Below, one piece after another: positions 1,940 through 14,836 of a DNA stretch of 27,351 nucleotides. Origin of the DNA: Minisyncoccota bacterium. Its GTDB lineage: Bacteria; Patescibacteriota; Minisyncoccia; Phycocordibacterales; UBA2100. The notes under the pieces were generated by a model. The model had not been told where the DNA came from, did not search any database, and worked only from the letters and a program-made list of their open reading frames with translations. Where the stretch lies: positions 1 to 27,351 of the forward strand of contig DASZII010000005.1 of assembly GCA_035949275.1 (NCBI GenBank). The letters are read 5' to 3'. The translations under genes and the position numbers were made by a program. How positions within the stretch are numbered: the stretch's first letter is position 1; each line of letters opens with the position of its first letter.

Positions 1940-3256
1940 CTACGAAGCGATGCGTGCGGGCAGTTCCGTTCGAGCGACCCGCTCCTGTTCTCCCGAGTCG
2001 CGGTCGCGGATGGTGACGGTGTCGTTCTCAAGCGTGTCGAAATCGACGGTGATGCATGCGGGCGTGCCGATCTCGTCCTGCCTGCGATAGCGCTTGCCGA
2101 TGTTGCCGTTGTCGTCCCACATGATGCGCGGCTCGATCTTTTTCAGCGTCGAATAGATATCGCGCGCTTTCGCCACGAGTTCGGGCTTGTTCTTAAGGAG
2201 CGGGAACACGGCCGCTTTGATAGGCGCGACCGCTTTGTTGAATGCGAGATACGTGCGCGTTTCGCCGTTCATTTCGTCCTCGCGATAGACCGAAGAAAGG
2301 ATCGCAAGTACCGTACGGTCGACGCCGAACGACGGTTCGATCACGTGCGGAACGAACCGCTCACCGGTCGACTCATCGAGGTACGAGAGATCCTGCCCCG
2401 AGGCTTTGGCGTGCGCCGAGAGGTCGAAATCCGTGCGGTATGCAAGACCGTACAATTCCTTGCGGCCGAACGGGAAATCAAATTCGAAGTCGATGGTGCG
2501 TTCCGAATAATGCGCCCGGTCCCCCGGCGCGACCTCCAGCTCGTGGACCTCGCTGCGCGCGATGCCGACCGCTTCGTTGAACGCATGCACTTCCTGTTGC
2601 CACATCCCGAATGCCTCCTCCCATTCGGCGGGACGGACGAAATATTCGATCTCCATCTGCTCGAATTCGCGCGAGCGGAAAGTGAAATCCCGAGGCGCGA
2701 TCTCGTTGCGAAACGCTTTCCCTATCTGTGCGATGCCGAACGGCAGTTTCGGATGGAACGAATCGATGACATTCTTGAAATTCACAAAAATGCCGCCGGC
2801 GGTCTCCGGACGCAAATACGCGATCGAGGCATCGCCCTCGGCGGCGCCGACCTGCGTTTTGAACATCATATTGAACTGCCGTACTTCGCCGAAATCTCCG
2901 CCGCATTCAGGGCATTTTCTTGCCTCGAGCGGAGTCGAGAGGTCGCCGACCTGATCTGCGCGGAAGCGACGCTTACATTTCTTGCACTCAACGAGCGGGT
3001 CCTGGAATCCTTCGACGTGCCCGCTCGCCTTCCACGCTTCCGGATTCATGACGATCGCCGCGTCGAGCCCGCACATGTCGTCGCGTTCCTGTACGAACAT
3101 GCGCCACCAAAGCTGCTTTACATTATTCTTGAGTTCAACGCCCAGAGGGCCGTAATCCCAAAAACCAGAAAATCCGCCGTAAATTTCGGAACCGGGATAG
3201 ATGAACCCCCTGCGCTTGCACAGGGAAACTATTTTCTCCATGCGATCATCCGCCAT
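1940..3256 (-). CDS. glyS: Glycyl-tRNA synthetase, homodimeric (alpha2) type
   Basis: LCKRRGFIYPGSEIYGG, YLRPETAGGIF, GKAFRNEI, FRSREFEQMEIEYF, VIEPSFGVDR and IGKRYRRQDEIGTP motifs. Confidence 0.97.
   Translation of the reverse strand: MADDRMEKIVSLCKRRGFIYPGSEIYGGFSGFWDYGPLGVELKNNVKQLWWRMFVQERDDMCGLDAAIVMNPEAWKASGHVEGFQDPLVECKKCKRRFRADQVGDLSTPLEARKCPECGGDFGEVRQFNMMFKTQVGAAEGDASIAYLRPETAGGIFVNFKNVIDSFHPKLPFGIAQIGKAFRNEIAPRDFTFRSREFEQMEIEYFVRPAEWEEAFGMWQQEVHAFNEAVGIARSEVHELEVAPGDRAHYSERTIDFEFDFPFGRKELYGLAYRTDFDLSAHAKASGQDLSYLDESTGERFVPHVIEPSFGVDRTVLAILSSVYREDEMNGETRTYLAFNKAVAPIKAAVFPLLKNKPELVAKARDIYSTLKKIEPRIMWDDNGNIGKRYRRQDEIGTPACITVDFDTLENDTVTIRDRDSGEQERVARTELPARIAS
2923..2942. repeat. Small palindromic element within the glyS Zn-ribbon (encodes LSTPLEA)
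   Basis: CTCGA-GCGGAG-TCGAG hairpin lying between RADQ and CPECGG. That it is an insertion is inferred, not aligned. Confidence 0.4.
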
Positions 3257-3281
3257 TCCAGAGAGTGTAGCGCAAAAGCGC

Positions 3282-13190: not shown

Positions 13191-13231
13191 TCGGAATCGA
13201 AAAAAACGCAATCGTCCTTCTGTTCATATTA

Positions 13232-14836
13232 TTATTTCTTAGGCGGAATCCAATGCACTTCGATAAGCCCAAGATGTCCGAGACGGGCGCGAATTGCGCC
13301 TGATTTACGGCCGAAGCGTTTGGCGATGTCCGCATTCGAGGCGTTCTCGGCGAACATCTTTTTGAGCGTTTCGTCGTCCTCGTTGCTCCATTTTCTGCCG
13401 ACGTTCGGATACTTCTCGCGCAGTGTTTCCAACTTGCTTTTCACAGGCTGCGCGACCTCCATCTGACGCGGTTCGTGCGCACCGATCGCCCGCAGGAAAT
13501 TCTTTTCGAGTTTCTCTTTTTCGCTCTGCGGCAGTGCGGCGAACTTTTTCCGTGCGGCATCGGAGTAACCCCGGAAATGTCGGTCGGCCGCGGCGACTTT
13601 CGGATGTAATTGCAGCGCGCGCTCATTGAAACCTTCGAGATGAAGCCCTTCCAACGTCCGCACGCGCGAGATCGCCACGTACCCCTGCCCGAACTCGAAC
13701 GCCTGCGAAAGGTCGATGACCGCCGCGTCGAGCGACATTCCCTGCGACTTGTGCACGGTGATCGCCCAAGCGAGCCGGAGCGGTATCTGCGTGATCTTCG
13801 CGAGCAATTTGTTGCCGTCCTGGATGGCCCAATCGACCGGCTCGACGGTGATCGTAGTGTTCTTCGTCTTTATGATCGGCGCTCCGAGCGGATTGAACCC
13901 GATGACCTCGCCAAGCGTGCCGTTCACGTAGCCCATATCGAAATTGTTGCGCGTGAAGAGGACTTTTGCTCCCTCTTTGAGTTCGAGCACTTCGGGCGAA
14001 AGGCATTCTGCTTTCAACGATTCGACGAGCGCTCTGGGTCCGCGCGCGATCATGTGAAAGACATGCGATGGATTTTGTATCTCCTTGAGCGACTCTTGAT
14101 TGATGCGATCGACGTTCTCGTTGTGCGGATACAGGCGCGTAGCAACGCTTTGTTTTGAAAGAACGCCGGCGCGCGACCGCAGCGTAGTCCGATGTGTACC
14201 GCTCAACGTGCCCCGGCGGAATGCGCCGAGCAGTTCCAAAAAATCGCCGTCTTCCTGCCGATGTTGCTCATTGAGGTAACAAATAATGGGATTTGCCTCT
14301 TTCCACGTGGACGACTCGAACGCGAATCCCGACGCTTCGGTCGAGACCCCGACCTCCCGGGAGCGTCGGGGCTTCGTTCTGCTTGTTGATATCGGCGGTA
14401 GCTGAAAAAAATCGCCGACGAATACGACCTGCAGTCCCCCGAAGGGCTCCTCTTCGCGCATCGGTCGGCGACGCAGCGTCCGCAGCACACGGTCGACGCT
14501 CGCGAGCGTTTGCGCGTCGAGCATGGATATCTCGTCGATAATGAGCACCTTCGCCTCGATGATCCGCCGCGCCGTTTTCTCACGGCTTTGAATGAGCTCG
14601 ATGTCGTGGTCGCTTACATTCGATTTGATTCCGATGCCGCTCCACGAGTGGATGGTCATGCCGTTGATGTGCGTCGCCGCGATGCCGGTCGAAGCCGTCA
14701 CCGCCGGCTCGACGCCGCGCTCTCGCAACCATTGCACGTATCTGTTTATCGTATGCGTCTTCCCGCTCCCGGGCTCGCCGGTCAGAAATACATTGAGCCC
14801 TGTTCTCAAAATAGCGAAAGCTTCATCCTGCGTCAT
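13232..14836 (-). CDS. PIF1-family (SF1B) DNA helicase with small C-terminal HTH-like domain
   Basis: GEPGSGKT, TIHSWSGIG, IIDEISM, GDFFQLPP, RLAWAITVHKSQGMSLD and GQGYVAISR motifs. Confidence 0.92.
   Translation of the reverse strand: MTQDEAFAILRTGLNVFLTGEPGSGKTHTINRYVQWLRERGVEPAVTASTGIAATHINGMTIHSWSGIGIKSNVSDHDIELIQSREKTARRIIEAKVLIIDEISMLDAQTLASVDRVLRTLRRRPMREEEPFGGLQVVFVGDFFQLPPISTSRTKPRRSREVGVSTEASGFAFESSTWKEANPIICYLNEQHRQEDGDFLELLGAFRRGTLSGTHRTTLRSRAGVLSKQSVATRLYPHNENVDRINQESLKEIQNPSHVFHMIARGPRALVESLKAECLSPEVLELKEGAKVLFTRNNFDMGYVNGTLGEVIGFNPLGAPIIKTKNTTITVEPVDWAIQDGNKLLAKITQIPLRLAWAITVHKSQGMSLDAAVIDLSQAFEFGQGYVAISRVRTLEGLHLEGFNERALQLHPKVAAADRHFRGYSDAARKKFAALPQSEKEKLEKNFLRAIGAHEPRQMEVAQPVKSKLETLREKYPNVGRKWSNEDDETLKKMFAENASNADIAKRFGRKSGAIRARLGHLGLIEVHWIPPKK
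14328..14370. repeat. Branched palindromic element in frame in the helicase (within KPRRSREVGVSTEASG)
   Basis: Outer arms CCCGACGCT/AGCGTCGGG (9 bp), inner hairpin GGTCG/CGACC, and palindrome TCCCGGGA. Confidence 0.65.

Follow-up and report, generated by a model that had tools for sequence, protein, structure and literature searches.

Probable REP-like palindromic elements inserted in frame in conserved genes of a Patescibacteria genome

The stretch of DNA studied here (hereafter the window) is the whole of contig C5, 27,351 nucleotides (nt) long, from the Minisyncoccota genome assembly GCA_035949275.1 (G000; 731 kb in 80 contigs, 57% G+C, 86% complete), and three conserved genes within it, encoding glycyl-tRNA synthetase (glyS), the small subunit of ATP-citrate lyase (aclB) and a PIF1-like helicase (pif1), each carry a short in-frame insertion relative to aligned homologs. 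We consider it probable that these inserts are miniature elements resembling the repetitive extragenic palindromes (REPs), and that they were moved, most likely in trans, by enzymes of the REP-associated tyrosine transposase (RAYT) type. The reading draws on sequence families dispersed among genomes of the same genus, on an excess of hairpins among lineage-specific insertions and on RAYT-like genes bracketed by palindromes that recur in frame in essential genes of a relative. Among the genus genomes referred to below, G008 is the closest relative of G000, and G001, G002, G014, G043 and G079 are other members.

Translation of the minus strand placed all three peptides exactly where the original prediction, which had been made from the sequence alone, had located them, and Pfam matches bore out the gene identities that it had proposed, as alignment with homologs did for in-frame insertions of 27 nt in aclB, 45 nt in pif1 and 24 nt in glyS, situated, as also proposed, in loops or tails of conserved proteins. 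The aclB gene (7138..8316, minus strand, 392 residues; Pfam Citrate_bind and Citrate_synth_N, with homolog alignments) encodes the peptide SARGGPASGR at residues 296–305 (window 7402–7431), of which nine codons (SARGGPASG, 7405..7431, minus strand) constitute a clean indel, missing from every one of the seven genus homologs in the first alignment, among them the closest, that of G008 with 80% identity. An AlphaFold2 model of the protein (mean predicted local distance difference test score of 73) puts residues 296–304 in a loop between a helix (275–291) and a strand (305–314), a predicted placement that fits a tolerated surface insertion. The helicase gene (13232..14836, minus strand, 534 residues; Pfam PIF1 and Pif1_2B_dom, with genus homologs) has PRRSREVGVSTEASG at residues 156–170 (window 14327–14371), comprising 15 extra codons directly after the GDFFQLPP motif when compared with G008 (81% identity) and most other homologs; the insert region as a whole spans 14327..14386 (minus strand), with a branched hairpin at 14328–14370. 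This site is an insertion hot spot, at which other species hold different inserts, several with inverted repeats of their own. The class II glycyl-tRNA synthetase gene (1940..3256, minus strand, 438 residues; Pfam tRNA-synt_2b and HGTP_anticodon, homologs in 31 of the 31 genus genomes searched) encodes LSTPLEA at residues 106–112 (window 2921–2941), between both Cys pairs of a zinc-ribbon module; the insert region (D-LSTPLEA-R, 2918..2944, minus strand) contains eight extra codons in alignment with the closest glycyl-tRNA synthetases that retain the module.

Independent Logan contigs, assembled from soil metagenomes of different studies, matched the aclB site (one run) and the pif1 site (three runs) letter for letter with zero differences, and these inserts are therefore not assembly errors. 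The aclB insert is identical at 26 of 30 nt to its counterpart in the homolog of ant_bin.587 (67% identity), and that of glyS occurs at the identical site in G014 with the same peptide and 23 of 24 nt identical; in both cases closer relatives are without the insert. Since the two are thus common to non-sister relatives at the same site they are not recent, and sequence comparison suggests that these copies are old, have been exchanged by recombination or were precisely lost in some lineages, with no evidence of current activity. Nor did Logan contigs from four soil runs reveal any presence/absence polymorphism at the three sites, although rare variants are dropped from such contigs, and the active spreading originally envisaged was not borne out for this genome, whose three copies have the look of long-established residents and not of new arrivals.

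Two side observations concern the host proteins themselves. The zinc-ribbon module of glyS as a whole (2878–2985, residues 91–126, about 36 residues with CxxC...CxxC) is missing in G008 and in about eight other genus members, and in synthetases without it the matches to residues 1–90 and 126–437 lie only a few bases apart, which amounts to a domain-level polymorphism within one genus. Homologs of aclB in other metagenome-assembled genomes (MAGs; L131 and L146) carry different inserts near residue 40, on the N-terminal side, one of which reads GPFDGFDKLTTSRLRAS, typical of translated REP-like repeats, and another being a tandem GRSPSFQEG repeat.

The three inserts had all been described as hairpins, which proved right for two of them when folded as single-stranded DNA against 200 dinucleotide shuffles. 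That of aclB forms a perfect stem of 9 base pairs (bp) with a 6-nt loop at 7405–7428 (z −2.5), and that of pif1 a 9-bp outer stem with an inner hairpin (z −2.2), in each case with 4 of the 200 shuffles folding as well; both folds are modestly but truly better than the shuffles. The glyS insert forms a 5-bp stem only (z +0.33, with 118 of 200 shuffles folding as well) and is not a significant hairpin. As the genome holds 56 perfect 9-bp stems against about 33 in shuffles, such a stem is not rare alone, and what exceeds chance is the coincidence of hairpins with indels. This was seen upon whole-genome comparison of G000 with G008 (477 ortholog pairs with a median identity of 74% and 589 indels listed), in which each indel segment of 5–20 codons was folded with 6-nt flanks against 100 shuffles of its own codons. 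The 94 segments had a mean z of −0.74, with 21% below −2, versus a mean of −0.02 and 4.6% for 282 length-matched controls drawn from those genes (Mann–Whitney p 3.4e-5). Against the codon-shuffled control that had been suggested as a check 21% of the indel segments thus fold far better, and about a fifth of the lineage-specific insertions in G000 and G008 are hairpins beyond amino-acid and codon content. A few open reading frame (ORF) pairs were read in the wrong frame, for example in the tail of secE, leaving the DNA-level indels unaffected. Words of 10 and 11 nt were furthermore shared among inserts 2.3 and 3.7 times more often, respectively, than among controls.

It was also clear that two of the three units belong to families dispersed in the genus. 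With up to three mismatches allowed, the aclB unit was found in 30 of 116 genus genomes, at up to about 10 loci per genome, while the reversed control gave none. Its consensus, GCCCRAGGC-GGAYCG-GCCTYGGGC, has a 9-bp stem in which one purine/pyrimidine pair varies between G-C, A-T and G.T. Its copies reside in aclB, in glmS (at the same site in G008 and G043) and in the C-terminal tail of ribosomal protein S3, and further ones are intergenic or lie upstream of a recombinase gene. Outside the genus, a degenerate pattern with at most one mismatch matched 11 of 400 other Patescibacteria genomes, representing 10 other genera, with controls at 0. The 24-nt glyS unit was present in 18 of the 116 genus genomes (reversed control 0), mostly outside glyS, as in a holB-like gene, the N-terminus of uvrA and others, and its outer four base pairs co-vary (CCTC..GAGG versus CCCC..GGGG). 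The pif1 unit, of which the 5′ 24 nt were tested, had no other copy in the 116 genomes, and this null serves as a negative control for the pattern-search method. Dispersed copies with unrelated flanks were seen at genus and phylum level for aclB and at genus level for glyS, and none inside this genome, where no word of at least 13 nt from the three elements recurs and approximate matching gives only distant relatives. The commonest 10-mers are here ordinary CG-rich coding words and not a REP, so the genome contains no high-copy family. The notion of dispersed elements accordingly held for the aclB and glyS units within the genus, and failed for pif1 and, with regards to repetition within the genome itself, for all three.

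A further family came from several inserts specific to G000 that contain the perfect palindrome CCTGCCTGCGCAGGCAGG, with an 18-nt core equal to six codons, and read xPAQAG (peptide LPAQAG). This genome holds seven copies at one mismatch or fewer and nine at up to two. Hosts of the family include the S16 tail, ftsQ, secE and uvrB. Seven perfect copies, counted as 16-mers, occur in G001 and one imperfect copy (1–2 mismatches) in each of G008, G002 and G014. Altogether 59 of the 116 genus genomes have the family, the copy number per genome being 0–12, and the reversed control matched three genomes, once each. Alignment of 16 copies gave sharp borders, unrelated flanks and no target duplication, and as no duplicated flank was present we rejected the possibility that these are miniature inverted-repeat transposable elements. 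Frames other than LPAQAG occur as well, giving CLRRQA and ACAGR. In the window the family is represented at 19197..19212, where a pattern match with one mismatch to CCTGCCTGCGCAGGCAGG reads GLPAQSG in the C-terminal tail of a gene at 19171..19503 (minus strand, by translation), which we take to be secE from our own reading of its N-terminal sequence, with no database match behind the label. That tail, of about 55 residues and low complexity, consists largely of inserts, namely the palindrome copy, a 13-codon indel with an 8-bp-stem hairpin at 19231..19256 (fold z −4.4, 0 of 200 shuffles) and a PDP/TPTP repeat.

As for a possible mover, the Y1 transposase family PF01797 matched 42 of 46 genus genomes, at most 13 times in any one. 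The single RAYT-like gene of G008 (L065:10381-11052) encodes 223 residues with an HUH motif and a Tyr motif, and its match to REP_Tyr_transpos, the NCBIfam model for REP-associated tyrosine transposases, is weak (41 bits versus a cut-off of 80). A perfect palindrome lies on either side of the gene, the two sharing a 23-nt core; they begin with CGTC, and the 3′ one encodes the last residues of the protein. G001 has ten paralogs, several of which are enclosed by a pair of perfect palindromes spaced about 700 nt apart, the palindrome being a different one for each, and two of these palindromes have perfect solo copies elsewhere in that genome, in frame, one in both pheT and def (each reading SDEVRPHR) and the other in guaA; a further, degenerate match lies at G001:C18. 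These perfect in-frame copies in pheT, def and guaA tie a RAYT-type unit directly to essential genes within the genus. Degenerate copies of the G008 bracketing palindrome, with two mismatches, were also noted inside purB (L063:13639-13659) and smc (L069:8962-8982) of the same genome. Across genomes, no pattern relating the number of RAYT genes to the copy number of the 18-nt family could be discerned by eye, and no transposase gene flanked by the pif1 family was seen in the positions compared.

Taken together, we favour a scheme in which short, GC-rich and mostly palindromic units of 18–45 nt would have been copied into many unrelated places in genomes of the genus. These genomes being almost all coding sequence, the survivors would be in-frame copies in tolerant sites, with a net length that is a multiple of three and located in surface loops or protein tails, where they would be translated as small peptides rich in Gly, Pro, Ala, Ser and Arg with little effect on the host protein. 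The mover would most likely be a RAYT-type Y1/HUH transposase that recognises hairpins in single-stranded DNA and acts in trans, and many genomes of the genus have genes of this type; the aclB and glyS families may have been moved by such enzymes and the pif1 singleton by the same route. A REP/RAYT-like route had been part of the original prediction, and it has support in the RAYT-like genes, their flanking palindromes and the in-frame solo copies in G001, and lacks it in this genome and beside the focal families. Indeed, a number of results weigh against our reading. Neither PF01797 nor the G008 protein retrieved a RAYT-like gene from this 86%-complete assembly, and the site syntenic to that of the G008 gene (G000:C3:1-870) contains no ORF of this kind. 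In the positions compared, no transposase was seen beside the aclB, glyS or 18-nt families. In G079, two 18-nt copies lie 2 kb apart at the C-termini of nuclease-like and DnaQ-like genes with a LexA-like gene between them, and a transposase considered there was rejected, only ordinary genes being present. Copy numbers are very low for REPs, each of the three focal elements is single-copy here, that of pif1 is without relatives over the 5′ 24 nt tested and that of glyS without a significant fold, and nearly all of the 18-nt copies in this genome (eight of nine) read LPAQAG-like in frame, a preference that may partly come from selection on the peptide. The pheT palindrome replaces native codons, eight for five, and is not a clean insertion, and the purB match presumably adds no length in comparison with E. 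coli PurB. Finally, hairpins can also be made in place, as described below. The syntenic stretch at the start of contig C3 (L203:1-870) is otherwise about 870 nt without a convincing ORF, beside a ccdA/thioredoxin-like gene, and could represent either decayed sequence or an RNA gene.

Hairpins could arise without any mobile sequence if the nascent strand folds back or switches template, so that quasi-palindromes are created or perfected locally. An example was found within aclB itself, at 8175–8203, where the conserved GTLVVKVDQG motif contains, with no insertion, a perfect stem of 11 bp closed by a 7-nt loop; relative to G008, which has a 4-bp stem here, four synonymous differences confined to the 5′ arm extend it to 11 bp. 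Since this stem arose by synonymous changes alone, hairpins can evidently form in place, and in the Ripley model such clustered changes that perfect an inverted repeat are the signature expected of template-switch mutation. Consistent with the same process are that flanking sequence recurs, direct and inverted, inside the aclB insert according to our own reading, that the pif1 element is unique over the 5′ 24 nt tested and has its 3′ arm in residues aligning with homologs, that the palindrome-family sequence in pheT exchanged native codons with little net change in length and that a family match lies inside G008 purB. Template switching would, however, yield a unique sequence at each locus, an expectation contradicted by the multi-locus identity of the aclB, glyS and 18-nt families. 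It leaves unexplained the near-identical sequences of 16–24 nt in unrelated genes, genomes and genera, for which reversed controls give none, as well as the perfect identity between RAYT-flanking palindromes and intragenic solo copies. We thus regard it as an unlikely general explanation of the inserts, which may still lie behind unique hairpins such as that of pif1.

Ordinary variation in loop length under selection on the protein is less likely still. In disordered linkers rich in Gly, Ala, Pro, Arg and Ser the codons pair up as reverse complements (GCC/GGC, CCG/CGG), and palindromes as well as the LPAQAG peptide might then come from composition or convergence, in keeping with inserts located in loops, tails and apparent signal-peptide ends, with the LPAQAG-like reading of eight of the nine 18-nt copies here, and with a glyS piece that folds no better than chance in a genome where 9-bp stems are common by chance. 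Yet shuffling the codons of the inserts, which leaves amino acids and codon content as they were, makes the folds significantly worse, the identity between copies is at DNA level and includes synonymous positions (with the seven perfect 16-mers of G001), and the additional reading frames CLRRQA and ACAGR occur; for the aclB, glyS and 18-nt families this explanation is already largely refuted by the DNA-level identity across genes. Very improbable, finally, is that the inserts are functional DNA or RNA signals (uptake sequences, protein-binding sites or mRNA structures) maintained through selection or biased recombination, for although perfect palindromes of 16–24 bp resemble operator or uptake-signal architecture, the glyS insert (23 of 24 nt) is better conserved than neighbouring synonymous sites between non-sister species and that of aclB is 26/30 identical in ant_bin.587, a figure given without comparison to its flanks, the 0–12 copies per genome are far below those of known uptake signals, the copies arrive as indels and not as substitutions, their positions show no association with promoters or gene ends, the window has no Rfam match, and an uptake-signal reading was rejected on copy number and indel origin.

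Returning to REP-like elements as the reading that we prefer, this kind of element is already known, both as intragenic REPs and as the Rickettsia palindromic elements (RPEs). REPs are extragenic by name, and their biology is known almost wholly from Proteobacteria. The elements described here resemble the REP/RAYT systems of that phylum (REPtrons, REPINs) in being short, GC-rich dispersed hairpins, in the Y1/HUH genes of G008 and G001 bracketed by their own palindromes, in the lack of target duplication seen for the 18-nt family and in patchy, lineage-specific copy numbers. Unlike those systems, copies number 0–12 instead of hundreds, most of the examined copies are intragenic and translated, the palindrome differs from one RAYT paralog to the next, no RAYT was seen next to a focal family and the RAYT-like proteins score below the NCBIfam cut-off. 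With regards to Rickettsia, Ogata and colleagues reportedly described RPEs in 2000 as selfish DNA lying in frame in conserved genes and translated as extra loops; elements of the RPE-1 type are about 100–150 bp. The analogy to RPEs drawn in the original prediction thereby stands for palindromic units that are inserted in frame and translated in conserved ORFs of a small, gene-dense genome, and does not extend to length, the units here being 18–45 nt, to host phylum or to sequence, in which there is no relation. Quasi-palindrome template switching, for its part, is matched by the clustered changes perfecting the inverted repeat at aclB 8175–8203, whereas it does not yield the same sequence at many unrelated loci and genomes.

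Also close in kind are the GTAG- and CGTC-tagged REPs located entirely within ORFs, among them DNA-repair genes such as uvrA and uvrB, where they add residues to loops that presumably tolerate them (Di Nocera, De Gregorio and Rocco 2013; PMC3733652). The same study covers other phyla, relates some RPEs (RPE-4 and RPE-6 are discussed) to CGTC-tagged REPs and states that CGTC REPs are without a dedicated transposase (PMC3733652). Unlike the latter, the palindrome starting with CGTC in G008 brackets a RAYT-like gene, and, unlike GTAG/CGTC REPs in general, the aclB and 18-nt families have no obvious GTAG or CGTC tag at their ends; GACG/CGTC does occur inside the outer stem of pif1.

No paper that connects RAYTs or intragenic palindromes with Patescibacteria was found in the literature; in the ultra-small, gene-dense genomes described here REP-like elements seem to live mostly inside conserved genes, alongside many RAYT-like paralogs. 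A broader proposition, which we put forward tentatively and with more doubt than conviction, is that REP-like hairpins in Patescibacteria have shifted their main niche into essential genes, as whole-codon units having no stop in the frames read and moving horizontally between distant lineages (the same 24-nt unit occurring in 11 genera), and that they might be a steady source of small lineage-specific protein insertions, helped by diversified RAYT-like paralogs each with its own hairpin. If REP-like elements do live mostly inside conserved genes, this would explain part of the odd small insertions in Patescibacteria proteins, the inserts would be natural markers of tolerant loop sites in essential proteins, and the 223-residue enzyme with its 23-nt hairpin would offer a compact system for studying hairpin choice by HUH enzymes. 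Annotators and phylogeneticists should be warned that the inserts are DNA-level events, sometimes common to non-sister species, and not protein-level characters.

The closest public relatives of G000 are MAGs labelled Candidatus Paceibacterota or Paceibacteria, within Patescibacteria, and the sequencing runs containing the window sequence are soil metagenomes. All genes in the range 1940–14836 are on the minus strand; in addition to those already described, they encode a DUF11 protein (3282–5333), the ATP-citrate lyase large subunit (5357–7141), a GNAT acetyltransferase (8320–8946), recO (9418–9993) and ileS (9994–12885). The window contains neither Rfam families nor tRNAs. The two-subunit ATP-citrate lyase (5357–8316) is encoded in a Patescibacteria genome of less than 1 Mb; the search for its small subunit was positive in only 8 of 24 other genus genomes and in none of 16 other families of the order, and homologs do exist among MAGs labelled Saccharibacteria and further Patescibacteria MAGs. 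The recO and GNAT genes are separated by a short gap, within which a perfect 10-bp stem enclosing a 4-nt loop at 9387–9410 has a terminator-like look.

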